From: Micrococcus luteus NCTC 2665
Lineage (GTDB): Bacteria; Actinomycetota; Actinomycetes; Actinomycetales; Micrococcaceae
Length of the DNA stretch: 32,000 bases
Direction of reading: 5' to 3'
Assembly: GCF_000023205.1 (NCBI RefSeq)
Contig: NC_012803.1
Location: 2,160,001-2,192,000, forward strand
In this document: positions 253 through 28,767 of the stretch, in pieces
Numbering within the stretch: position 1 is the stretch's first letter
Layout: the number at the start of each line of letters is the position of its first letter
The notes under the pieces: model-generated
Database searches by the model: none
Told to the model about the DNA's origin: nothing
Seen by the model: only the letters and a program-made list of their open reading frames with translations
Program-made: the position numbers and the translations under genes

Positions 253-292
253 GACGACGGCGGGCACCCCACGCAGGTGCCCGCCGTCGGCG
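253..292 (+). terminator. GC-rich hairpin after the partial CDS, a likely intrinsic terminator
   Basis: GACGGCGGGCACC (256-268) pairs with GGTGCCCGCCGTC (277-289) across an 8-nt loop, about 35 nt after the stop codon. There is no clear T-tract, which is common in high-GC actinobacteria. Confidence 0.5.
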
Positions 293-334: not shown

Positions 335-405
335 GTTCGAGGCGGAAAATCCACCTCATTCGAGCCGGGAGGGCCAGTTTGAGCTCGATTTCCCGCCTCG
401 AAGCA
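335..405. repeat. Family A palindromic intergenic repeat, copy A1
   Basis: Arms GTTCGAGGCGGAAAATCCAC (335-354) and TCGATTTCCCGCCTCGAAGC (386-405) form an inverted repeat. The same arms occur at 2413-2483 and 3597-3672. An extra TCCCGCCTCG / CGAGGGGCGGG mini-hairpin lies at 421-452. Confidence 0.7.
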
Positions 406-1400: not shown

Positions 1401-1438
1401 GCCGCCCGCCGTCGTCGTCGCCCCGCCCGCCCGCCTGC

Positions 1439-1499
1439 AACGCGGGTTGACCTATCACCAGTACGACCCCGCTCCACCCGCGACAACTCAACCCGCGTC
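1439..1499. repeat. Family E structured repeat, copy E1, in the hpaH-hpaI spacer
   Basis: The core GGTTGA(1445)...TCAACC(1493) spans exactly 49 nt. It is about 70% identical, position by position, to 9340-9388 (shared GGTTGAnnTATCACCnGT...CCGC..CACCCG..AA.TCAACC). The stem extends to AACGCGGGTTGA / TCAACCCGCGTC. Confidence 0.55.
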
Positions 1500-1535
1500 G
1501 GGTGGAGGATGCGGAGAACCCCGGAGGAACGTCCC

Positions 1536-2412: not shown

Positions 2413-2483
2413 CTTCGGGGCGCGAAATCCACCCCATGGACGCCTGATCCTGGTCCATGACGTGGATTTCCCGCCTCGAATGG
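2413..2483. repeat. Family A palindromic repeat, copy A2, inverted relative to A3
   Basis: The sequence reads CTTCGGGGCGCGAAATCCAC ... GTGGATTTCCCGCCTCGAATGG. Its reverse complement aligns with 3597-3672 at identical spacing, apart from the 15-nt centre. The perfect arm faces the downstream DUF559-type gene. Confidence 0.75.
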
Positions 2484-2606
2484 TTCGGGGCCGGCGCCCC
2501 GGAGGGACGCCACCGCCTCCTGCACAACCGCGCCGGTCCCCCTCGTGCGTCCCCAGGCCCACGCTCGTCCGTCTCGGGATGCCGACCGACGGGGCACGCT
2601 CGCCGC

Positions 2607-3557
2607 ATGCCCCGTCGCCCCGCCCCGCTGCCGCCGTCGATCGACCCCGCCGCCTTCACGGTCGACGACGCGCGCCGGGCGGGCGTGACGTGGCCCCGAC
2701 TGCAGTCCTCAGACCTGCGGCGGCTGCGCCACGGCATCTACGGGCCGGCCGGCCCCGCGGCGGTCTCCGTGCGTGAGTGGACGATGGATGAGGTCCGCGC
2801 GTACCAGCGGCGCCATCCCGACGTCGTCGTCAGCCATGAGACCGCCGCCCGCCTGCACGGCCTGACCGTGCCCGAACGGCTGCTGGCCCCCGGTGCGGTG
2901 CACGTCAGCGTCGGCACCTCGGGTGGCCGGCCGGTCCAGGCGGGTCTGGTGCCCCACCGCATCGAAGTGCCGGAGGGACAGCGGATGACGCGGGGCGGCG
3001 TGCTCGTGACGACGCCGGCCCGCACGCTGTGGGACCTGTGCGCGGCACGGTCGGCGCTCACCGGGCGGGACGTCGTCATCGCCGGTGACGCCCTGCTCTG
3101 CCCGCCGTGGCTGCCCGGCGGCGGACGCGGGGCTCCCGCCTACACCCCGGAGGAGCTCGTCCGATCGCTGGCCGAACGGGGACGTTTCCGGGGGCGCGGG
3201 CTGGCCCGGGCGGCGCTGGCGAGGATGCGCGTGGGGGCGGATTCGCCGCGCGAGACGCGTCTGCGGCTGGCGCTCGTCGACGCCGGGCTGCCGGAGCCCG
3301 AGATGCAGTGCCGGCTGGACCCGTCAGACCGCCGCGCTCCGACGGTCGACCTGGGGTATCGGCAGTGGCGCCTCGCGTTGCAATACGAGGGCGAGCACCA
3401 CCGCACCGCCGAGCAGCAGGCCCGGGACGTGCTGCGCGACCGCTGGTGCGCCGACCACGACTGGCTCTCGATCAAGGTCATGTGGGCCGACGCCCGGGAC
3501 GACTACGCGGACGTCGTCGCGCGGGTGCGGTGCCGGGCGGCCGAGTTCAGTGGGTGA
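2607..3557 (+). CDS. AbiEi-like wHTH N-terminal domain fused to a DUF559 / Vsr-like PD-(D/E)xK endonuclease domain, paralogue 1
   Basis: The C-terminal part reads SPRETRLRLALVDAGLPEPEMQ ... TVDLGY...LALQYEGEHHR ... RDRW, which fits the DUF559 pattern of D, then E-x-(D/E)-G-x-x-H-R. The N-terminus (FTVDDARRAGVTWPRLQS..LRRLRHGIY) fits the AbiEi-type wHTH region common in actinobacterial paralogue families. The start is set to ATG 2607 because similarity to the paralogue at 27551-28543 begins there (MPRRPAPLPP vs [10 protein letters not shown]). The longer ORF from 2457 runs through repeat A2. Confidence 0.7.
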   Translation: MPRRPAPLPPSIDPAAFTVDDARRAGVTWPRLQSSDLRRLRHGIYGPAGPAAVSVREWTMDEVRAYQRRHPDVVVSHETAARLHGLTVPERLLAPGAVHVSVGTSGGRPVQAGLVPHRIEVPEGQRMTRGGVLVTTPARTLWDLCAARSALTGRDVVIAGDALLCPPWLPGGGRGAPAYTPEELVRSLAERGRFRGRGLARAALARMRVGADSPRETRLRLALVDAGLPEPEMQCRLDPSDRRAPTVDLGYRQWRLALQYEGEHHRTAEQQARDVLRDRWCADHDWLSIKVMWADARDDYADVVARVRCRAAEFSG

Positions 3558-3596
3558 CCCGGTGAGATCCACGGCCACTGCAGTCCGCCACGGCTC

Positions 3597-3672
3597 CCTC
3601 GTTTCGAGGCGGGAAATCCAGGTCATGGGGCTCTGGTCCACGCCCATGGGGTCGATTTCCCGCCGCGAAAGG
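3597..3672. repeat. Family A palindromic repeat, copy A3
   Basis: The sequence reads CCTCGTTTCGAGGCGGGAAATCCA ... TCGATTTCCCGCCGCGAAAGG, with an internal CATGG/CCATGG stem. It begins 40 nt after the stop of the DUF559-type gene, and the perfect arm faces that gene. Confidence 0.75.
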
Positions 3673-7191: not shown

Positions 7192-9279
7192 ATGAAGATT
7201 CTCCCGCCGGGTTCCGCCGCGTCCCCCCGCCCGCTCGCGCCCGCCGTCGCGGTCGCCGCGCTCTCCGTCCTCGTCGGCGGCCTGCTCCCGCAGCAGCCGT
7301 CCGCGACCACGGAGGGCGCCCCCGACGCGCGCCCGCTCGACGACGCCGCCCGTGCCACGACCGCCGGGACGGCCACGACCCCCGCGTCGGCCGCTCCCGT
7401 CGAGGGCGCCGGCGTCGCGACCGTCCCGCAGGAGGGCGAGAACCTCGTCCCGGCCGAGGAGGCCCCGGCCGGCGTCGTGCTCGGCGAGCCCGTGGTGGAC
7501 CGTCCGTTCACGGTGGCCGCCGCCGTGTGGGACGCCGCGGCGGACGACGCCGTCGAGCGCGTGGAGATCCGCGTGCGTCAGGACGGGGCCTGGGGCCCGT
7601 GGCAGGTCCTGGATCGGCCCGTCCTGCCCGAGGACGCCGCCCCCGCACGCACCGGCACGGACCCGTTCGTCGCGTTCGGCGCGGACGGCGCCCAGCTGCG
7701 CGTGACCACCGTGGACGGCGCAGCCCCGGCCGGCCTCGAGCTGTCCCTCATCGACCCGGGCACGGCCGCCACGGACGAGACCGTCGCGAGCGCGCACCCG
7801 GCGGTGGCCGCCGAGCAGGCCGCGGAGACGGCCGGCCTGCCCCGGGGCGTGAAGTCGAGCGCCGTCGTCGGGGGCGCCGCACCCGCCGAGGCCCGCACCG
7901 TGGCCACGGCCTCGGACGCGCACGCGCACGCGCACGCGCACGCGAAGATCCTCCCGGACGTGATCACCCGCTCACAGTGGGGCGCGGACGAGTCCTGGGC
8001 CGAGTCCTCCCCGCAGTTCGACCAGGTGCGCGCGCTGACCATCCACCACACGGCCGGCACCAACGACTACACGCGCGCCCAGGCCGTGGAGCAGATGCGC
8101 GGCGTCTACGCGTACTACACGAAGACCCTCGGCTGGGGCGACTTCCCGTACCATCTGATCACGGACCGCTTCGGCAACATCTACGAGGGCCGTCGCGGCG
8201 CCCTGGACTCGAACCCGCTGGGCACGCACGCGGGCGGGTTCAACCGGGGCACGATGGGCATCTCCACGATGGGCAACTACGACGTGGTCGCCCCGTCCGA
8301 GGAGGTGGTGGACGCGATGGCCCGCGCCACCGCCTACTACCTGTACCGCGACGGCATCGACGCGCGGGGCCGGGTCACCCTGACCTCGGGCGGCAGCACG
8401 AAGTACGCCGCGGGTACGCCCGTCACCGTGGACACGATCTTCCCGCACCGGGCCACGTCCGCGACCGCGTGCCCGGGGCAGCACCTGATGGCCCGCTTCG
8501 ACGACCTGCGGGACCGCGCCGAGGCCATCGCGACGGCGGCCGGCCAGCCGCCGGCACCGACCACCCCGGCTCCGACGCCGGCCCCGACGACCGCGCCGTC
8601 GACCGCCGGCACGTACACGGTGCAGCCGAACGACGGCTGGTGGACCATCGCCCGCCGCACCGGCGTGCCCGCGGCCACCCTCCAGGAGCTCAACGGCATG
8701 ACCGAGTCGACCGTGCTCCACCCGGGCATGGTGCTGCGCACCGTCGCCGACCCGACCGCCCCGGAGCCCACCCCCATCACCACCGGCACGTACACGGTGC
8801 AGCCGAACGACGGCTGGTGGGTCATCGCCCGACGGACCGGCGTCAGCGCCGCGGAGCTCCAGCGGCTCAACGGCATGGCGGCATCCACCGTCCTGCACCC
8901 GGGGATGGTGCTCATCACGGCCGCCACGGCGCCGGCCTCCACGCCCGCGCCCGCTCCGGCCCCCGCCCCGGGCACGTACACGGTCCGCGAGGGCGACGGC
9001 TGGTGGATCATCGCCCACCGCACCGGCGTGACGATGGAGACCCTCCAGCGCCTCAACGGCATGACCGCGACCACCGTGCTGCACCCGGAGATGGTGCTGC
9101 GGACCGGCCAGACCGCCTCCGCCCCGGCGCCCTCGCCCGCCACGTACGTGGTCCAGGCGAACGACGGCTGGTGGCTCATCGCCCAGCGCACGGGCGTCTC
9201 CATGGAGCGCCTGCAACGCCTCAACGGTATGACGGTCTCGACCATGCTCCACCCGGGCATGGTGCTGCGCACCGCCTGA
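7192..9279 (+). CDS. Secreted N-acetylmuramoyl-L-alanine amidase (Amidase_2/PGRP fold) with four C-terminal LysM domains
   Basis: The start at ATG 7192 gives a signal-peptide-like N-terminus (MKILPPGSAASPRPLAPAVAVAALSVLVGG). The amidase core reads ITRSQWGADES...ALTIHHTAG.N.Y...Q....MRGVYAYY...LGWGDF.YH...D.FGNIYEGR.G...G.HAGGFN.GT.GIS.MGNY. Four repeats of GTYTV.(P/E).DGWW.IA.RTGV....LQ.LNGM..(S/T)TVLHPGM.L are LysM. The ORF track extension back to 6589 is rejected because it overlaps the Rieske gene on the opposite strand. Confidence 0.85.
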   Translation: MKILPPGSAASPRPLAPAVAVAALSVLVGGLLPQQPSATTEGAPDARPLDDAARATTAGTATTPASAAPVEGAGVATVPQEGENLVPAEEAPAGVVLGEPVVDRPFTVAAAVWDAAADDAVERVEIRVRQDGAWGPWQVLDRPVLPEDAAPARTGTDPFVAFGADGAQLRVTTVDGAAPAGLELSLIDPGTAATDETVASAHPAVAAEQAAETAGLPRGVKSSAVVGGAAPAEARTVATASDAHAHAHAHAKILPDVITRSQWGADESWAESSPQFDQVRALTIHHTAGTNDYTRAQAVEQMRGVYAYYTKTLGWGDFPYHLITDRFGNIYEGRRGALDSNPLGTHAGGFNRGTMGISTMGNYDVVAPSEEVVDAMARATAYYLYRDGIDARGRVTLTSGGSTKYAAGTPVTVDTIFPHRATSATACPGQHLMARFDDLRDRAEAIATAAGQPPAPTTPAPTPAPTTAPSTAGTYTVQPNDGWWTIARRTGVPAATLQELNGMTESTVLHPGMVLRTVADPTAPEPTPITTGTYTVQPNDGWWVIARRTGVSAAELQRLNGMAASTVLHPGMVLITAATAPASTPAPAPAPAPGTYTVREGDGWWIIAHRTGVTMETLQRLNGMTATTVLHPEMVLRTGQTASAPAPSPATYVVQANDGWWLIAQRTGVSMERLQRLNGMTVSTMLHPGMVLRTA
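7918..7944 (+). repeat. In-frame hexanucleotide microsatellite (GCGCAC)x4 + GCG, encoding (Ala-His)4-Ala
   Basis: Read directly as gcgcac gcgcac gcgcac gcgcac gcg. It lies at the linker immediately before the amidase catalytic domain. Confidence 0.9.
8608..9276 (+). repeat. Four tandem LysM-encoding modules with Pro/Ala/Thr linkers; long stretches are identical at the DNA level
   Basis: The modules start at about 8608, 8785, 8971 and 9139. GGCACGTACACGGTGCAGCCGAACGACGGCTGGTGG is repeated verbatim in modules 1 and 2. Confidence 0.85.
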
Positions 9280-9291
9280 GCACCCCGCCGG

Positions 9292-9339
9292 GACGACGTC
9301 GGCCCGCACCTTCGCGCGCAGGTGCGGGCCGACGTCGTC
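9292..9339 (+). terminator. Perfect 19-bp hairpin after the amidase gene
   Basis: GACGACGTCGGCCCGCACC (9292-9310) pairs with GGTGCGGGCCGACGTCGTC (9321-9339) across a 10-nt loop, 13 nt after the stop codon. Confidence 0.7.
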
Positions 9340-9388
9340 GGTTGAGTTATCACCGGTCGTAGGCCGCCGCACCCGGGATAAGTCAACC
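9340..9388. repeat. Family E structured repeat, copy E2
   Basis: GGTTGAGTTATCACCGGTCGTAGGCCGCCGCACCCGGGATAAGTCAACC is 49 nt. Its terminal inverted repeat is GGTTGAGTTATC / GATAAGTCAACC. It is collinear with 1445-1493. Confidence 0.55.
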
Positions 9389-9565
9389 GGCGTTCCCCCG
9401 AGGCACGAGTGGCACGCCGAGGACGCCCTCGTGGCGCTGCGCCGCTGAGCTGCCGTCACAGTCCCGGCCTCTCCGCCCCCGGGCGCCCCCGGACCCCGCC
9501 CGCGGCCTACCCTGGAGGAGCCCGACCCGGGCCGCGACCGAGTCACGAGGAGATGAGACGAGCGC

Positions 9566-10191: not shown

Positions 10192-11322
10192 TCACTTCAG
10201 GAAGTCGCGCGCGACCTCCAGGAAGCGGTCGTTGGCCTCGACCTCGCCGATGCTCACGCGCACGCCCTCGCCCGCGAACGCCCGGACGGACAGGGCCTGG
10301 GCCTGGGCGGCCTCGGCGAACTCCTGCGTGCGCTCGCCGAGCGGCAGCCACACGAAGTTGGCCTGCGAGGCGGGCAGGTCCCAGCCGGCCTCGGCCAGGG
10401 CGGCGGCGACGCGCTCGCGCTCGTCGACGACGACCTGCACGCGCTCGAGGACCTCATCCAGGTGCTCGAGCGAGGCGATCGCAGCCTCCTCGGCCACCGT
10501 GGACACCGCGAACGGGGTGGCCACGGTGCGCAGGGCCTTCGTGATCTCCGGCTGCGAGACCGAGTAGCCCACGCGCAGGTTGGCCAGGCCGTGGGCCTTT
10601 GAGAAGGTGCGCAGCACGACGACGTTCGCGTGCTTGCGGTACATGTCCAGGCCCTTGACCGCGTCCTCGTCCCGGACGAACTCCACGTAGGCCTCGTCGA
10701 TGACCACCAGGATGTGCTCGGGCACGCGCGCCAGGAAGTCCTCGACCTCGGCGGTGGTGAGCACGGGGCCGGTCGGGTTGTTGGGGGTGCAGAGCAGGAT
10801 CACCCGCGTGCGCTCGGTGATCGCGTCCAGCATGGCCGGCAGGTCGTGGCGGTGGTCCGCGGTGAGCGGCACCTGCACATCCACGGCGCCGGCGGTGCGC
10901 ACCACGATCGGGTAGGCCTCGAAGCTGCGCCACGCGAAGATCACCTCGTCGCCCTCACTGGCCTCGCCGTGGCCGGCGAAAGTGGTGATGACCTGGGCCA
11001 GGGCGCCGAGGGAGCCGGCGCCGGTCACGACGTCGTCCGCCGGGACGTCCAGGTGCGCGGCCAGGGCCTGGCGCAGGCCGGTGGAGAGGGTGTCCGGGTA
11101 GCGGCAGAGCGTGCTGGGCGCGCCCTCCGGGCCGGTCACGACCTCGCGCACCCGCTCGATCACGCCGGGCACGGGGGCGAACGGGTTCTCGTTCGACGAG
11201 AGCTTGTAGGGCTGCAGGCCCGGGACCGCGACCGGCGGCTTGCCGGCAGCGTACGGCGGGAGCATCCCGACCTTCTTGTGCGGGGCGACCACGGCGGGCG
11301 CCTGCTGTGCGTCATCAGTCAT
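10192..11322 (-). CDS. Class II pyridoxal-phosphate aminotransferase (histidinol-phosphate / aromatic amino acid aminotransferase family)
   Basis: Family hallmarks are LSSNENPF.P, NPTG and the PLP-lysine motif FSKAHGLANLRVGY. The start is set to ATG 11322 (MTDDAQQAP...). The aromatic-catabolic context suggests a phenylalanine/tyrosine transaminase role, but that is inference. Confidence 0.85.
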   Translation of the reverse strand: MTDDAQQAPAVVAPHKKVGMLPPYAAGKPPVAVPGLQPYKLSSNENPFAPVPGVIERVREVVTGPEGAPSTLCRYPDTLSTGLRQALAAHLDVPADDVVTGAGSLGALAQVITTFAGHGEASEGDEVIFAWRSFEAYPIVVRTAGAVDVQVPLTADHRHDLPAMLDAITERTRVILLCTPNNPTGPVLTTAEVEDFLARVPEHILVVIDEAYVEFVRDEDAVKGLDMYRKHANVVVLRTFSKAHGLANLRVGYSVSQPEITKALRTVATPFAVSTVAEEAAIASLEHLDEVLERVQVVVDERERVAAALAEAGWDLPASQANFVWLPLGERTQEFAEAAQAQALSVRAFAGEGVRVSIGEVEANDRFLEVARDFLK

Positions 11323-11379
11323 GGCCACCAGGGTAATGCGGGCCGCGGACACTGTGAGCCGCCCCACGGGTCCCGGGGA

Positions 11380-12108
11380 TCAGGCTGCGCCGAACTCGGC
11401 GGCCACGGCCCGGGCCGCCTGCTCGAGCCGGTCGCCGAGGCGCGCGGGGTCTTCGGGCCGCGTCGCATAGACCACGGCGAGGGCGGCGGGCAGCTGACCC
11501 GGGGCCTGCAGCGGCACGGCGACGGAGGAGACGCCGGTGATGACCTCGTCGGTGCTGACGGCCCAGCCGCGCTCCCGCACGTCCTCGAGCTCGGGCCGCT
11601 CGGGCGGGGCGTCACCGTGCAGCCGTACCCATTCCTGCCCGGGCAGGGCGACGGCGATCGCCATCCCCGGCGCGCCGACCCCGAGGGGATGCCGTGTCCC
11701 GGGCCGCTGGGTGACGAGGTTGCCGCTGGGCGGCTCGGCCGTGGCCAAGGTGAGGCAGTGCGCGCCGTCCCACACCACAAGGAACGCGGTCATGCCCAGG
11801 TCGGTGGAGACGGCGGTCAGGTGCGGCATGGCCGCCGCGCGCAGGTCCTGCTCCACCCGGCGGGCGAGGACGGCCAGGCCGGGGGCGGCGTGGACGCGGC
11901 CGAGGCCGTCGCGGCGCAGCAGGCCGTGGGCCTCGAAGGTGCGCAGCACGCGGTAGGCCACCGAGCGGTGGACCCCCAGACCGTCGGCGAGGTCGGCGAT
12001 GGTGGGCGGCTCGGGCGCCTCCACGACCGTCTCGAGCAGCGTGAGCGCGCGGGAGAGCGTCTGGGAGGGCGCGCCCTCCCGGCCGGGGCCGCCGTCGTGC
12101 TCTGTCAT
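11380..12108 (-). CDS. IclR family transcriptional regulator
   Basis: The N-terminal wHTH reads LSRALTLLETV......TIADLADGLGVHRSVAYRVLRTFEAHGLL, followed by a C-terminal IclR effector-domain-like region. It is divergent from the hydroxylase gene and sits upstream of the aminotransferase on the same strand. Confidence 0.85.
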   Translation of the reverse strand: MTEHDGGPGREGAPSQTLSRALTLLETVVEAPEPPTIADLADGLGVHRSVAYRVLRTFEAHGLLRRDGLGRVHAAPGLAVLARRVEQDLRAAAMPHLTAVSTDLGMTAFLVVWDGAHCLTLATAEPPSGNLVTQRPGTRHPLGVGAPGMAIAVALPGQEWVRLHGDAPPERPELEDVRERGWAVSTDEVITGVSSVAVPLQAPGQLPAALAVVYATRPEDPARLGDRLEQAARAVAAEFGAA

Positions 12109-12211
12109 CCGTGCTCCTCACCGCGTGTGCCGGACGCGACGCGCCCGGGGCGTCATAGACCCGCGCACCGATTGTGAACGCAGTCACGTCGGCGTACAGT
12201 CTGGCACACAC

Positions 12212-12250
12212 GTGTTCCCAGGGGGAACGCCGTGTTCTCTGAGAGAACAC
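12212..12250. promoter_or_regulatory. Two adjacent palindromes with GTGTTC / GAACRC half-sites in the iclR-hydroxylase divergent spacer, a candidate IclR operator
   Basis: GTGTTCCCAGGGGGAACGC lies at 12212-12230. GTGTTCTCT-G-AGAGAACAC lies at 12232-12250 and has perfect 9-bp arms. The second ends 54 nt upstream of the hydroxylase start. Confidence 0.45.
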
Positions 12251-12304
12251 ACTCCGGGTGGCACGCGCGCCGCGCAGCGACATCCCCCGCAGCGAAAGGA
12301 CCCC

Positions 12305-14218
12305 ATGCTCTTCCACCACCACGGCTATGTCTCCACGAACCCGCGCGTCCAGGTGGCGGCCGGCATCGGCCTCGACCGCCCCGCCGAGCTGCCCGACGAG
12401 ATGGACGTGCTGATCGTCGGCTCCGGCCCGGCCGGCATGATCGCCGCCGCCCAGCTCGCGATGTTCCCGGACGTCCACACCCGCATCATCGAGCGCCGCC
12501 CCCACCGCCTCGAGATCGGCCAGGCCGACGGCATCCAGGCCCGCTCCGTGGAGACCTTCCAGGCCTTCGGCTTCGCGAGCGAGATCATCGACGAGGCCTA
12601 CGACCTGACCTCCATGGCGTTCTGGAACCCGGCCGCTGACGACGCGGACACGATCGTGCGCACCTCTCTGGCCGAGGACGACCCGGAGGGCATCTCCGAG
12701 TTCCCGCACCTGATCGTGAACCAGGCCCGCATCCTGGACTGGTTCGCCGAGTACATGAAGAACTCCCCCACCCGCGCGGAGCCGGACTACGGCTGGGCGT
12801 TCGAGGGCCTCGAGGACACGACCGAGGGCGAGTACCCCGTGCTCGTGACCCTGCGCCGCACCGTGGACGCCGAGGGCAACGCCCTCGAGGACCCGGCCTC
12901 GGGCCCGACCCGCCAGGTGCGTGCCAAGTACGTGGTGGGCGCGGACGGGGCGGGCTCCCGCGTCCGCAAGTCGATCGGCCACGCCCTGTCCGGCGACGCC
13001 GCGAACCACGCGTGGGGCGTCATGGACGCACTGGCCGACACGAACTTCCCGGACATCCGCACCAAGTGCGCGATCCACTCGTCCAGCGGCTCGATCCTCC
13101 TGATCCCGCGCGAGGGCGGCCACCTGTTCCGCATGTACGTGGACCTGGGCGAGGTCCCGGCGGACGACAACCACAAGGTGCGCCAGACCCCGCTCGAGGA
13201 GATCATCCGCCGGGCCCAGCAGATCCTGCGCCCCTACACGCTGGAGGTGAAGGAGGTCGCCTGGCACTCGGTGTACGAGGTGGGCCACCGCCTGACCTCG
13301 GGCTTCGACAACCGCGAGCGCGTGGACCACCCCAACGTGTTCCTGCTCGGCGACGCCTGCCACACCCACTCCGCGAAGGCCGGCCAGGGCATGAACGTGT
13401 CCATGCAGGACGGCTGGAACCTGGGCTGGAAGCTGGGCCAGGTGCTCTCCGGGATGGCCCCGGCCGAGCTCGTGCCGACCTACTCGGAGGAGCGCAAGGA
13501 GATCGCCAAGAACCTGATCGACTTCGACAAGGAGTGGTCGACGCTCATGGCGAAGCCCACCTCCGAGCTGGGCGACCCGAACGAGGTGGCCGAGTTCTAC
13601 ACGAAGACCGCCGAGTTCCCGGCCGGCTTCATGACGGAGTACCAGCCCTCCCTCCTCACCACGGACGCCACCGGCCAGGCGCTGGCGCAGGGCTTCCCGA
13701 TCGGCAAGCGCTTCAAGTCCGCCCTGGTGGAGCGCTCGTGCGACACCAACGTCAAGCACCTGGGCCACCTGCACCGCGCGGACGGCCGCTGGCGTGTCTA
13801 CGTGTTCGCCGACGCCGCCTCCCCGCGCGCCGAGGACTCGAAGGTCGCGGCGTGGGCGAAGGCGATCGAGGAGGACCCGCACTCGTTCCGCAACCGCCAC
13901 ACCCCGTCGGACGGCCCCGAGGACGCGCGCTTCGACGTCAAGGTCGTGTACCAGCAGAAGCAGACCGAGTTCGCCCACCCGGACGTGCCCTCGGTCTTCC
14001 GGCCGACCACCGGCCCCCTCGGCCTGCACGACCTGAACAACATCTTCGCCACGTGCCAGCCCAAGCACGGTGAGGACATCTTCGAGGCCCGCGGCATCAG
14101 CCGTGACGGCGCCGTCGTCGTGGTCCGCCCGGACCAGTACGTCTCCGGCGTCTTCGGCCTGGACGAGGTCGACCGCCTGAACGCGTTCTTCGCGGGCGTG
14201 CTGCTCGACGCGAACTGA
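12305..14218 (+). CDS. FAD-dependent aromatic-ring hydroxylase (phenol 2-monooxygenase / 3-hydroxybenzoate 4-monooxygenase family, with a C-terminal thioredoxin-like domain)
   Basis: The protein is 637 aa from ATG 12305, with AAAGGA upstream. Motifs are the GxGxxG (VLIVGSGPAGMIAAAQL), DG motif (VGADGAGSRVRK) and GD motif (VFLLGDACHTHSAKAGQGMN.SMQD..NLGWKL). The extra ~200-aa C-terminal extension is typical of the phenol-hydroxylase subgroup. Substrate is not determinable from sequence alone. Confidence 0.85.
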   Translation: MLFHHHGYVSTNPRVQVAAGIGLDRPAELPDEMDVLIVGSGPAGMIAAAQLAMFPDVHTRIIERRPHRLEIGQADGIQARSVETFQAFGFASEIIDEAYDLTSMAFWNPAADDADTIVRTSLAEDDPEGISEFPHLIVNQARILDWFAEYMKNSPTRAEPDYGWAFEGLEDTTEGEYPVLVTLRRTVDAEGNALEDPASGPTRQVRAKYVVGADGAGSRVRKSIGHALSGDAANHAWGVMDALADTNFPDIRTKCAIHSSSGSILLIPREGGHLFRMYVDLGEVPADDNHKVRQTPLEEIIRRAQQILRPYTLEVKEVAWHSVYEVGHRLTSGFDNRERVDHPNVFLLGDACHTHSAKAGQGMNVSMQDGWNLGWKLGQVLSGMAPAELVPTYSEERKEIAKNLIDFDKEWSTLMAKPTSELGDPNEVAEFYTKTAEFPAGFMTEYQPSLLTTDATGQALAQGFPIGKRFKSALVERSCDTNVKHLGHLHRADGRWRVYVFADAASPRAEDSKVAAWAKAIEEDPHSFRNRHTPSDGPEDARFDVKVVYQQKQTEFAHPDVPSVFRPTTGPLGLHDLNNIFATCQPKHGEDIFEARGISRDGAVVVVRPDQYVSGVFGLDEVDRLNAFFAGVLLDAN

Positions 14219-21132: not shown

Positions 21133-21180
21133 CGACGACGGCGCCGCACCCTTTGCGTGAAGGGCGCGGCGCCGTCGTCG
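21133..21180 (+). terminator. Hairpin terminator after the paaA-G operon
   Basis: CGACGACGGCGCCGCACCCTT pairs with AAGGGCGCGGCGCCGTCGTCG as a 21-bp stem with one mismatch and a 6-nt loop. It begins 19 nt after the stop codon. Confidence 0.65.
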
Positions 21181-22704: not shown

Positions 22705-22740
22705 TCCGGCCCGCCTGACGGGCTGCGCCCGTCCCCACCC

Positions 22741-22786
22741 CACGACGACGGCGCGTCCCCCTCCGGAAGGGCGCGCCGTCGTCGTG
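22741..22786 (+). terminator. Hairpin terminator after the MFS transporter gene
   Basis: CACGACGACGGCGCGTCCC ... GGGCGCGCCGTCGTCGTG is an imperfect stem of about 18 bp. It begins 37 nt after the stop codon. Confidence 0.6.
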
Positions 22787-22812
22787 CGGTGCGCGGGCCG
22801 GACCGGACCGGC

Positions 22813-22870
22813 GCCGAGGCCCGCAGACACGCCGCCACGTCGGGGACGAAGCGGCGGGTCTGCGGGCCTC
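22813..22870. repeat. Family B 58-nt hairpin repeat, copy B1
   Basis: The sequence is GCCGAGGCCCGCAGACACGCCGCCACGTCGGGGACGAAGCGGCGGGTCTGCGGGCCTC. It has the same length, ends and stem as 27487-27544 and 28610-28667. Confidence 0.7.
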
Positions 22871-22909
22871 AGCGCGGGGCGCGCTGTCCCGTCACACCCG
22901 CCCCCGCAG

Positions 22910-25920: not shown

Positions 25921-25967
25921 GGCGCTTTCGAACGGGAGATAGGGCCTATCTCCCGTTCGAAAGCGCC
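25921..25967. terminator. Perfect 22-bp-stem palindrome after paaH, either a terminator or a protein-binding site
   Basis: GGCGCTTTCGAACGGGAGATAG - GGC - CTATCTCCCGTTCGAAAGCGCC. It is noticeably less GC-rich than its surroundings. An extra half-copy, ACGTTCGAAAGTGCG, lies at 25984-25998. Confidence 0.5.
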
Positions 25968-26029
25968 CATTCCCCCGATATCACGTTCGAAAGTGCGGGG
26001 GCGGGGTCGGCGCGGCTAACGTGACGGGC

Positions 26030-27366: not shown

Positions 27367-27486
27367 GCGGCAGAACTCTCCGGATGAGGGGGTGGGGCGG
27401 GTCCGAGGGGACCGGTGCTCGATTCTACGCCGGTCCGGAGACGAGGGGCAGGGGGTCGACGCCGGCCTGAGGCTCCCGCCCCTCTC

Positions 27487-27544
27487 GCCGAGGCCCGCAG
27501 ACGCGCCGCCACGTCCCGGCGGTAGCGGCGCGTCTGCGGGCCTG
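27487..27544. repeat. Family B 58-nt hairpin repeat, copy B2
   Basis: The sequence is GCCGAGGCCCGCAGACGCGCCGCCACGTCCCGGCGGTAGCGGCGCGTCTGCGGGCCTG, with a 19-bp stem. It ends 6 nt from the stop of the minus-strand DUF559-type gene, so it could serve as that gene's terminator. Confidence 0.7.
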
Positions 27545-27550
27545 GGCGGG

Positions 27551-28543
27551 TCAGATCCACGACGGCGGCACTCGGCCCGGCGGCGTCCGCGCGGCCACCA
27601 GGCCCCGCAGCTGCCGCACGAACAGCTCCCAGTGCCCCGGCCGGAACACGTCGGCGGTCACCCGGATCACCTCCCACCCCTCCGCGCGCAGGGCCGCGTC
27701 CCGCTCGCGGTCCTCACGCCACTGCCGGCGATCCGTGCGGTGCTGATCGCCGTCGTACTCGACGGCCACCTTGGCCTCCGCCCACACCAGGTCCACGCGG
27801 AGCAGCTGCCCCGTGGCGAGGCGGATGCACGGGTTCACTGCGGGCTCGGGGACGCCGGCCAGGACGAGCCGCGCCCGCAGCCGGCTCTCCTGCGGCGAGT
27901 CGGACCCGGGCCGCACGAGCTCAAGCGCCTCCCGGGCCGCGCGGATCCCGCGCACCCGTCCGCGTTCCCCGACGGCGGCGCGCAGCTCGGCCACGTCCGT
28001 CACCCCGGGAGGCAGCCGACGGCGGCGGGCCTCCGTCGGGGCGGTCCGCACCATGCTGTCCCCCAGCGCGACGAGATGCTCGAGCGGCCCGGCCTGCGCG
28101 GCGAGGTCGACGAAGGTCCACCCCGGCGCGGTCACGCGCACCCCGTCCACGATCCGCACCGGTGCGTCGGCGCGGAGGCGGTGTGAGCGGATCCCGGCCC
28201 GGCTCGACGCGGTGCCGTGGCCGCGCGGGGTCGCGGTGTGCACGGACCGGTCGGCGGCGAGCGGCCCGGTCAGCCACAGGCCGAGCACCCGGGCGGCCGT
28301 GACGTGGCTGAACACGCCCTCGGGGTGCAGATCCTGCAGCGCCCGCAGATGGTCCATGGGGTCCGGTTCGACGCCGCGCAGGCCCCAGAGCCCCCAGCCG
28401 AGGGAGACCACGTCCCCGCGCCGCAGCCGGGCCGCGCTCACCCCCGCCTCGCGCGCGGCCGGGGTCGAGAACACGGTCGGAGAGCGGAGGAGGCCGTCCA
28501 GTCCGCAGCGCATCGGAGGCAGGGGCGCGGGCGAGCGGGGCAT
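27551..28543 (-). CDS. AbiEi-like wHTH N-terminal domain fused to a DUF559 / PD-(D/E)xK endonuclease domain, paralogue 2
   Basis: The protein is collinear with the 2607-3557 product: [11 protein letters not shown]....AR.AGV...[37 protein letters not shown]...[15 protein letters not shown]. The start is set to ATG 28543. The longer ORF to 28675 runs through repeat B3. Confidence 0.7.
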
Positions 28544-28609
28544 GCGCCGAGCGTGCCCGATCCGGACGGGCCGCCGTCGTCGTCCGCTGGGATCTGTGGA
28601 CGACGCCCC

Positions 28610-28667
28610 GCCGAGGCCCGCAGACACGCCGCTACGTCCTGGCGGTAGCGGCGCGTCTGCGGGCCTC
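28610..28667. repeat. Family B 58-nt hairpin repeat, copy B3
   Basis: The sequence is GCCGAGGCCCGCAGACACGCCGCTACGTCCTGGCGGTAGCGGCGCGTCTGCGGGCCTC. Its orientation matches B1 and B2. It lies 67 nt upstream of the paralogue-2 start. Confidence 0.7.
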
Positions 28668-28767
28668 GGCGCCACGGCTTGCGCGGCGAAGCCCTCTCCA
28701 CGACGACGGCGTCACCGGCCCGGCTCCCCCCTCCCGCGTGATCCACGTCTCGGCTAGGGTGAGGAGC

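Follow-up and report, generated by a model that had tools for sequence, protein, structure and literature searches.

What ties a nuclease gene to the palindromes that stand on either side of it? The question is raised by a 32,000-nt stretch of Micrococcus luteus NCTC 2665 DNA (contig NC_012803.1; hereafter the window, whose positions serve as coordinates below), in which a gene for a putative nuclease (gene A) lies between hpaI and selO and is enclosed by two copies of a long palindromic repeat. In Proteobacteria, the hairpins of repetitive extragenic palindromic (REP) sequences are tied to genes of REP-associated tyrosine transposases (RAYTs), which are HUH enzymes and whose genes are flanked by inverted REPs in an arrangement called a REPtron; a separate repeat family for each paralogue is a hallmark of the REPtron. 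Here we show that gene A belongs to a very large actinobacterial family, in which each lineage has its own family of 45-85-nt palindromes by the gene, often on both sides, with solitary ("solo") copies elsewhere in the genome. The segment 2414-3669 forms a cassette complete in itself, with the promoter and the gene set between two hairpin repeats. It shares the architecture of the REPtron, but lacks the HUH/RAYT enzyme that defines it.

The cassette between hpaI and selO

The 18-nt arm TTCGAGGCGGGAAATCCA occurs six times in the window at up to two mismatches, and these occurrences form three arm pairs (A1, A2 and A3; Table 1), each with a constant spacer of 31 nt, a pattern that was matched in none of 100 shuffles of the sequence. 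Three palindromes of this family (family A), including the copy that the initial annotation had reported near 335-405, are far beyond chance. Folded as single-stranded DNA, A2 forms a hairpin of -22.9 kcal/mol (z = -5.8) and A3 one with z = -4.2, while the hairpin of the solo copy A1, whose sequence is more decayed than those of A2 and A3, is weaker (z = -2.2). All three are kept in place across 10 M. luteus contigs. The initial annotation had described the segments 2413-2483 and 3597-3672 as the same element in opposite orientation; the identity of the element stands, but the opposite orientation is not borne out, as the alignment of A2 with A3 over 83 positions gives 59 matches in the direct and 58 in the inverted sense, and the 27 orientation-informative positions are divided 12 to 11. 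Read by eye from the alignment, the inner stems lean towards inversion (7/8 vs 3/8) and the 15-nt centre towards the direct sense (7/15 vs 3/15). Likewise, the perfect arm faces the enclosed gene in this strain, as had been claimed, but this is not a rule: the outer arm of A3 has two mismatches here and one in other M. luteus strains, and in a second family of palindromes (family B, below) the perfect arms point outward, the reverse of family A in this strain.

The protein encoded by gene A had been interpreted as a fusion of an AbiEi-like winged helix with a nuclease core of the DUF559/Vsr type, and profile and fold comparisons agree. Its residues 16-148 match the AbiEi models of PADLOC with E = 2.3e-14, and a profile of 50 homologues matches the DUF559 structure 3hrl over the C-terminal domain (E = 0.0014); the Pfam family PF04480 (DUF559) itself gives no hit for protein A and 28.6 bits, against a cut-off of 20.6, for its paralogue B. 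In a search with Foldseek, the C-terminal domain of the AlphaFold model (pLDDT 94) was matched to the catalytic domain of I-Bth0305I (3r3p; prob 1.0, TM 0.68) and to 3hrl (TM 0.67), and also to PvuRts1I and AbaSI. The residues E216, D248, H265 and D274 are invariant among the 50 homologues, as are R208, R220, Y260, G262 and R277. Rough counts of synonymous and non-synonymous changes in gene A between strains are similar to those in selO; because of this resemblance gene A looks functional, and the enzyme appears to be active and under selection.

No HUH/Y1 domain was matched in the Pfam, PADLOC and NCBIfam scans or in the fold search of the protein, and the three scans found no transposase domain. 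A gene for the AbiEii nucleotidyltransferase adjoins neither gene A (neighbours hpaI and selO) nor gene B (neighbours panD and a paaZ-like gene). Gene A is chromosomal and intergenic, located neither in an intron nor in an intein. A phage origin was considered and rejected, as a scan of viral contigs found no relatives. In a profile search, 3,724 cluster representatives fall within the family of gene A at a cut-off of E <= 1e-30, and 23,178 do so at E <= 1e-10.

The product of gene A is encoded identically in several M. luteus assemblies at NCBI (e.g. GCA_900475555.1, LS483396.1), and the flanking genes in M. luteus assemblies are always those named by the initial annotation, i.e. the gene of the HpcH/HpaI aldolase and selO. 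In two M. luteus assemblies (L002 and L004, ~11125-12621) selO was not called 3' of gene A, which may indicate a pseudogene or a gap in the annotation.

The same junction in a related species delimits the element. Micrococcus endophyticus has kept hpaH, hpaI, selO and the downstream genes in this order, and has neither gene A nor its palindromes; its hpaI-selO spacer consists of 88 nt without a palindrome. In M. luteus, the parts of the hpaI-selO spacer that lie outside A2 and A3 measure 17 + 61 nt. Comparison of these lengths indicates that the unit by which the two species differ corresponds, within a few bases, to 2414-3669, with the palindromes as its ends. The cassette has thus been inserted or deleted as a whole at the level of species. 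Two further Micrococcus lineages have other genes at the hpaI-selO junction. M. endophyticus possesses long palindrome families of its own, different from those described here, in intergenic regions close to its hpa genes (L122 954-1024, 1130-1251, 2795-2868 and 7632-7721).

Palindrome families and gene lineages

Besides the three copies of family B, a repeat finder detected a 45-nt stretch near 28514-28558 that resembles the start of gene A; this site is the start of a paralogue, gene B. From 15 nt ahead of the ATG into the first codons, the two genes (window 2592-2636 and 28514-28558) are near-identical, and read GGGCACGCTCG(C/G)CGCATGCCCCG, though the proteins share only 38% identity. Compared with Pfam, protein B scores above the threshold for DUF559 and below it for MTES_1575, and its residues ~16-150 match the PADLOC AbiEi models with E = 8.3e-11. 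Gene B is enclosed by palindromes of its own family, B2 and B3, which resemble each other about equally in the direct and the inverted sense, as in family A. In a divergent Micrococcus genome (L023), a further paralogue is bracketed by two copies of a third family, C, and two more M. luteus paralogues, D (L031-L034) and E (L044/L125), which come from metagenome contigs and M. luteus genomes, are each boxed by a palindrome family of their own; gene E, annotated in numerous M. luteus assemblies, has purC on one side and ABC-transporter genes on the other in the genomes of this species. In the family E pair the extension is mirrored and the loop is direct. The feet of the arms read TTCGAGG in family A, GCCGAGG in B, GGCGAAC in C, CAACGCG in D and CACTTTCG in E. 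The genome L023 (CP179711.1) is labelled M. luteus; its WhiB is only ~64% identical to the common M. luteus form, and it probably represents another Micrococcus species.

Solo copies were found for four of these families. In addition to A1 and B1, located 47 and 17 nt, respectively, 3' of terminator-like hairpins, the window contains two solos of family D and one of family E, and a third D solo is located 1.1 kb upstream of the window. One of the D solos occupies the gap between hpaH and hpaI, which in M. endophyticus measures only 11 nt. The D and E solos sit on contigs other than those of their cognate genes, and a tblastn search beside the solo copies found no remnants of DUF559-type genes.

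A survey of the association drew on 80 metagenome loci together with loci from genomes; 32 lineages with a full gene and both flanks were taken from these by clustering at 80% protein identity, and neighbouring genes served as controls. A palindrome of at least 40 nt is present within 250 nt upstream of the gene in 23 lineages, compared to 8 of 71 control genes (Fisher P = 1.6e-9), and the upstream and downstream flanks resemble each other with a similarity score of at least 20 in 16 of the 32 lineages and in one of 48 control genes (Fisher P = 2.9e-7), this sole positive control being the neighbour of the DUF559-type gene in the lineage L022. Four DUF559-type genes are present in ~82 kb of gene-called Micrococcus DNA; the cognate palindrome is found in the intergenic region on either side of each (eight of eight), and only six palindromes of these families are located elsewhere. 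When the family labels are permuted over the 13 palindromes of the window, the presence of same-family pairs around both of its genes has P = 0.007. The possibility raised by the initial annotation, that the repeats are spread over intergenic sites with no enrichment next to this gene family, is contradicted by these results.

The association extends to other genera. In Agrococcus jenensis a matched palindrome pair is found at the DUF559-type gene, in Zhihengliuella halotolerans three additional genes lie within the pair, and in the subgroup with GAGCAGAA the second copy lies beyond a gene of the SDR type. As such additional genes are found inside the pair in some lineages, boxing of the gene is common, but not universal. 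We considered that the gene intervening in the GAGCAGAA subgroup could be a partner inside the cassette, and rejected this, as it is an ordinary SDR epimerase-like gene. In Z. halotolerans (L126 2413-9171), a block of ~7 kb with genes of an ABC transporter, HxlR and MDMPI, which holds the DUF559-type gene and both palindromes, interrupts the conserved ribosomal-protein/secY/adk cluster as an insertion that separates infA from map.

The palindromes follow the protein lineage. Similarity of the palindrome arms is correlated with protein identity (Mantel rho = 0.40, P = 5e-4), the correlation being higher when the N-terminal 150 aa are compared (0.34) than with the nuclease domain (0.16), and all lineage pairs with similar arms share at least 51% protein identity, compared to a median of 41% over all pairs. 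Shared ancestry adds to such a correlation, and the stronger evidence comes from the four differently paired paralogues (A, B, D and E) of a single species. The nearest relatives of protein A tell the same story: the lineages L022 and L128, whose proteins are 67% and 64% identical to protein A, occur in gene contexts unrelated to that of A, yet retain A-like outer arms, in palindromes of the TTCGAGGCGGGAGATC and TCGAGTGGCGCGAT types; the flanking copies of L128 are direct repeats. The alternative mentioned in the initial annotation, of orthologues that carry no flanking repeats within a block of conserved synteny, is thus not what the relatives display, as the gene is accompanied by its palindromes in new contexts, and the synteny conserved in M. 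endophyticus is without both.

What has been conserved in the palindromes is, at least in part, the hairpin. Pairing was analysed in 22 copies, 55 nt each and derived from several genomes, of the GAGCAGAA...GTCGGGT family. In these, 92.6% of the cells are paired and compensatory double changes occur at 8 of the 22 pairs; the observed score is reached by none of 500 shuffles and by no slid structure. Paired changes also distinguish copies within one genome (upstream vs downstream copy of L047: GATATGG/CCATATC vs GTTTTGG/CCAAAAC), which points to a structural requirement rather than a fixed binding sequence in those segments. The mismatches in this family comprise 9 G·T and 10 A·C, and with the two equally frequent, nothing points to one transcribed RNA strand.

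A second conserved element lies closer to the gene. Between the upstream palindrome and the start codon, 21 of 34 lineages have a box with the sequence TGTGGA at -47±2, or TCCACA at ~-57 or ~-84, and downstream of the gene this box never occurs; L127 has both halves (TCCACA-N7-GTGGA), and gene A has only the variant GTCCCCA. These observations concern 2547-2606 and 28544-28603 (minus strand) of the window and the upstream regions of L037-L127. A hexamer of the type nAnnnT, located 6-8 nt ahead of the ATG, suggests that the mRNAs of these genes, including that of gene A, may be leaderless. Scans for consensus sigma-70 promoters and T-tract terminators found nothing, but consensus rules fit Actinobacteria poorly. 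In several lineages we also observed TGTGGATAA, the reverse complement of the DnaA-box consensus.

Possible roles of the palindromes

It is tempting to regard the gene and its palindromes as partners, in the manner of REPINs and RAYTs or of insertion sequences (IS) and their miniature inverted-repeat transposable elements (MITEs), with a non-HUH nuclease that acts on its own extruded hairpins; we give this interpretation a chance just short of even. According to this scenario, the protein would recognize its own hairpins, either extruded as cruciforms or exposed on single-stranded DNA, and the Vsr-like domain would nick or cut them; the nick or cut would start recombination or copying, by which the hairpins and the cassette would be moved, spread or homogenised. 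The solo copies would then have arisen through the action of the nuclease. In M. luteus the cassette is now fixed at one site and inherited vertically, much like a domesticated element. The initial annotation had suggested that the nuclease is the cognate enzyme of the hairpin, and the separate families of the paralogues A, B, D and E lend support to this suggestion, while binding or cutting of the hairpins by the protein is something we infer. With somewhat greater reserve, we propose that nucleases with the AbiEi-like winged helix and the Vsr-like domain, a family with at least 3,700 lineages at 50% clustering, may be the cognate enzymes of an unrecognised class of REPIN-like repeats in Actinobacteria, i.e. 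a second, independently evolved symbiosis in which a PD-(D/E)xK nickase acts on extruded DNA hairpins.

The similarity to REPtrons and REPIN-RAYT systems comprises a chromosomal nuclease gene in single copy with a hairpin repeat on its flanks, a separate family for each paralogue, solo repeats in other intergenic regions, and vertical inheritance of the gene at a fixed site within the species; the long hairpin of 45-85 nt that makes up the repeat unit resembles a REPIN doublet. There are also differences. The enzyme combines an AbiEi winged helix with a Vsr/DUF559 PD-(D/E)xK domain instead of being an HUH/Y1 transposase, no orientation rule emerged, the solos seen number only one to three per family in ~40 kb, and the hosts are high-G+C Actinobacteria. 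REPs carry a conserved tetranucleotide tag, GTAG or CGTC, at the 5' foot of the hairpin (tag as defined in PMC3733652), and the arm feet of families A-E have neither tag conserved. Compact elements with hairpin-forming ends and short non-coding relatives scattered in the genome are also typical of IS200/IS605 and of IS/MITE pairs; however, TnpA, TnpB or a DDE transposase and a target-site duplication are missing here, and instead of distinct left and right ends there is a full palindrome of one and the same family on each side. With the Vsr-like (EDxHD) homing endonucleases such as I-Bth0305I and with the Vsr mismatch endonuclease, the family shares the fold of the C-terminal domain, the conserved E/D/H/D residues, and the presence of the entire gene in one species and its absence from another at a junction that both have kept. 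In contrast to homing endonucleases, the gene does not reside in a phage, an intron or an intein, its product has an AbiEi-like N-terminal half, and private palindromes flank the gene, a feature that to our knowledge has not been described for homing endonuclease genes. Vsr is linked to a cytosine methyltransferase, and here there is no such link. Two features recall the type IV AbiE system, whose AbiEi proteins bind to inverted repeats in their own promoters: the N-terminal 130 residues match AbiEi profiles, and a conserved inverted box is located near -50. Unlike in that system, there is no adjoining AbiEii gene, the C-terminal part is a nuclease, and long palindromes are found outside the promoter as well as 3' of the gene. 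We rejected an integron attC site, as no integrase is found among the called neighbours and the arms end in TTCGAGG...CCTCGAA and not in RYYYAAC/GTTRRRY; interpretations as IS200/IS605, CRISPR or simple terminators were likewise rejected, as their defining parts are missing. A literature search of incomplete coverage turned up no link between DUF559 or AbiEi fusions and palindromic repeats, and a published survey of REPs does not mention Actinobacteria.

Several observations weigh against a partnership of nuclease and hairpin. Nothing indicates recent movement: by exact look-up of HpaI, gene A is present in 10 of 10 M. luteus places, so that no empty site was seen among strains; comparison of loci within clusters found all of them syntenic. 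No target-site duplication was seen, as no direct repeat stands beside the outer ends of five cassettes, whose ends are only approximately defined. No consistent rule of orientation emerges, as A and B fit either sense about equally, L128 is direct and E is mixed. An upstream palindrome was not detected in 9 of the 32 lineages, and in some lineages the second copy lies past another gene. Copy numbers are low compared to REPs: the solos in ~40 kb amount to A1, B1, three of D and one of E, family A has a single solo in the ~100 kb of M. luteus DNA read, and the 21 kb around gene E contain the flanking pair and no other palindrome of the family. A scan of 185,579 species genomes with the two-arm pattern of family A gave 11 matches, all in unrelated metagenome-assembled genomes and taken as chance, and none in Micrococcus; however, it missed the window's own three copies, M. 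luteus being probably masked, and is therefore uninformative on the numbers of family A in this species. Finally, the promoter-proximal box is common to lineages with unlike palindromes; it is a better candidate for the operator of the winged helix, and as such would leave the palindromes without a known reader.

The box also counts in favour of the main rival explanation, which we consider rather unlikely, namely that the protein is a stand-alone, autoregulated selfish or defence nuclease (a free-standing homing-type enzyme or a one-protein module resembling AbiE), with the palindromes acting in cis instead of serving as its substrates (as insulating terminators, mRNA-end hairpins or looping operators that move along with the gene), and the solos as scars at sites where recombination of one flanking copy with the other removed the gene. 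Antitoxins that act on inverted repeats to repress their own promoters are relatives of the AbiEi-like half, and autoregulation through the box would be independent of the palindromes; the fold of the catalytic domain resembles that of the homing endonuclease I-Bth0305I, presence and absence of the gene between species at the conserved hpaI-selO junction would fit such an element, the direct repeats that flank the gene in L128 are what deletion to a solo requires, and the copy numbers are low. On the other hand, three D solos in ~10 kb of one operon would call for three separate insertions, each undone by a later loss, the upstream palindromes lie outside the promoter, with 55-190 nt between their ends and the start codon, B3 is located in the divergent promoter region common to gene B and the paaZ-like gene, where it terminates nothing, and the lack of strand bias among the wobble pairs argues against selection on one RNA strand. 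Further points against it are that the scan of viral contigs found no relatives and that no AbiEii partner adjoins the genes.

A purely RNA-level role and coincidence are both unlikely. According to the former, which we judge improbable, the palindromes would be mainly RNA hairpins, with a role as terminators or in mRNA stabilisation; they would belong to a repeat class that is widespread in Micrococcales and accumulates near accessory genes of poor expression, and local duplication or gene conversion would account for the match of the flanks. The compensatory changes that keep the pairing, the many copies located just 3' of stop codons and the position of solos beside terminator-like hairpins agree with this explanation, whereas an excess of G·U over A·C is not observed, T-tract terminators were not found, and an Rfam scan gave no match at the gathering score; moreover, it leaves unexplained why each paralogue has a private family, and why this family follows the protein lineage into new contexts. 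That intergenic palindromes are simply common in this genome, and that two of them flank gene A by coincidence, has very little probability in our view. Palindromes are indeed frequent, with 13 in the window scoring at least 12, compared to 1-5 in shuffled sequence, and with one in each of several intergenic regions of the hpa operon; chance, however, accounts poorly for the same-family pairs at both genes of the window and for the similarity of flanks that separates the lineages from the control genes. It accounts no better for the 21 kb around gene C, where the flanking pair are the sole palindromes of the family, as around gene E.

Proteins with the DUF559/AbiEi fusion are among the commonest genes of Actinobacteria annotated as "hypothetical" or "endonuclease domain-containing", and have no known function. 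As each gene has its own hairpin, the family gains a concrete candidate for its DNA partner, and experiments on binding and cleavage are easy to design. If the partnership of nuclease and hairpin is confirmed, the relationship between repeat and enzyme known from REPs and RAYTs would have arisen at least twice, with unrelated catalytic chemistries, and the high-G+C Gram-positives, usually thought to lack REP systems, would have one of their own. It would also account for intergenic palindromes that break assemblies and confuse the prediction of terminators in these genomes.

Features of the window and neighbouring repeats

Table 1. Positions of the genes, palindromes and hairpins discussed in the text (window positions, except where another contig is given).
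Feature	Position	Strand	Remarks
Family A arm pair A1	336-353/385-402
Family A arm pair A2	2414-2431/2463-2480
Family A arm pair A3	3603-3620/3652-3669
Solo palindrome A1	336..402	.	between extradiol dioxygenase gene and hpaH
Family D solo	1438..1500	.	between hpaH and hpaI
Palindrome A2	2414..2480	.	17 nt past hpaI stop codon, 127 nt before gene A start
Promoter-proximal region of gene A	2547..2606	+	degenerate TCC(A/C)CA box near -57; nAnnnT-like hexamer 6-8 nt before ATG
Gene A	2607..3557	+	316 aa; AbiEi-like winged helix N-terminal half and Vsr/DUF559 (EDxHD-type) PD-(D/E)xK nuclease C-terminal domain
Palindrome A3	3603..3669	.	46 nt past gene A stop, 61 nt before selO start
Family D solo, second	9333..9395	.	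abuts terminator-like hairpin at 9292-9339
Solo palindrome B1	22808..22878	.	between MFS transporter gene and thiolase gene; z = -8.8
Family E solo	25921..25995	.	core hairpin and extra arm
Palindrome B2	27486..27548	.	ends 3 nt past gene B stop codon; z = -8.2
Gene B, paralogue of A	27551..28543	-	330 aa; 38% identity to A, E = 2e-36
Palindrome B3	28609..28671	.	66 nt upstream of gene B start; z = -8.3
Terminator-like hairpins with shared sequence	window 255-289, 9292-9339, 21133-21180, 22736-22791; L001 6204-6254; L122 1028-1084, 2606-2650

The terminator-like hairpins of Micrococcus share the sequence (C)GACGACGGCGCC(C)GCACC...GGTGCGGGCGCCGTCGTC(G) and look like a repeat family in their own right. 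Four of the six solos (A1, B1 and two of family D) are located within 50 nt 3' of such a hairpin, a position that may represent a preferred site of insertion. A repeat of a different kind was observed inside the amidase/LysM gene (8603-9311), where four tandem copies of ~178 nt, 69-77% identical, probably correspond to repeated LysM domains.

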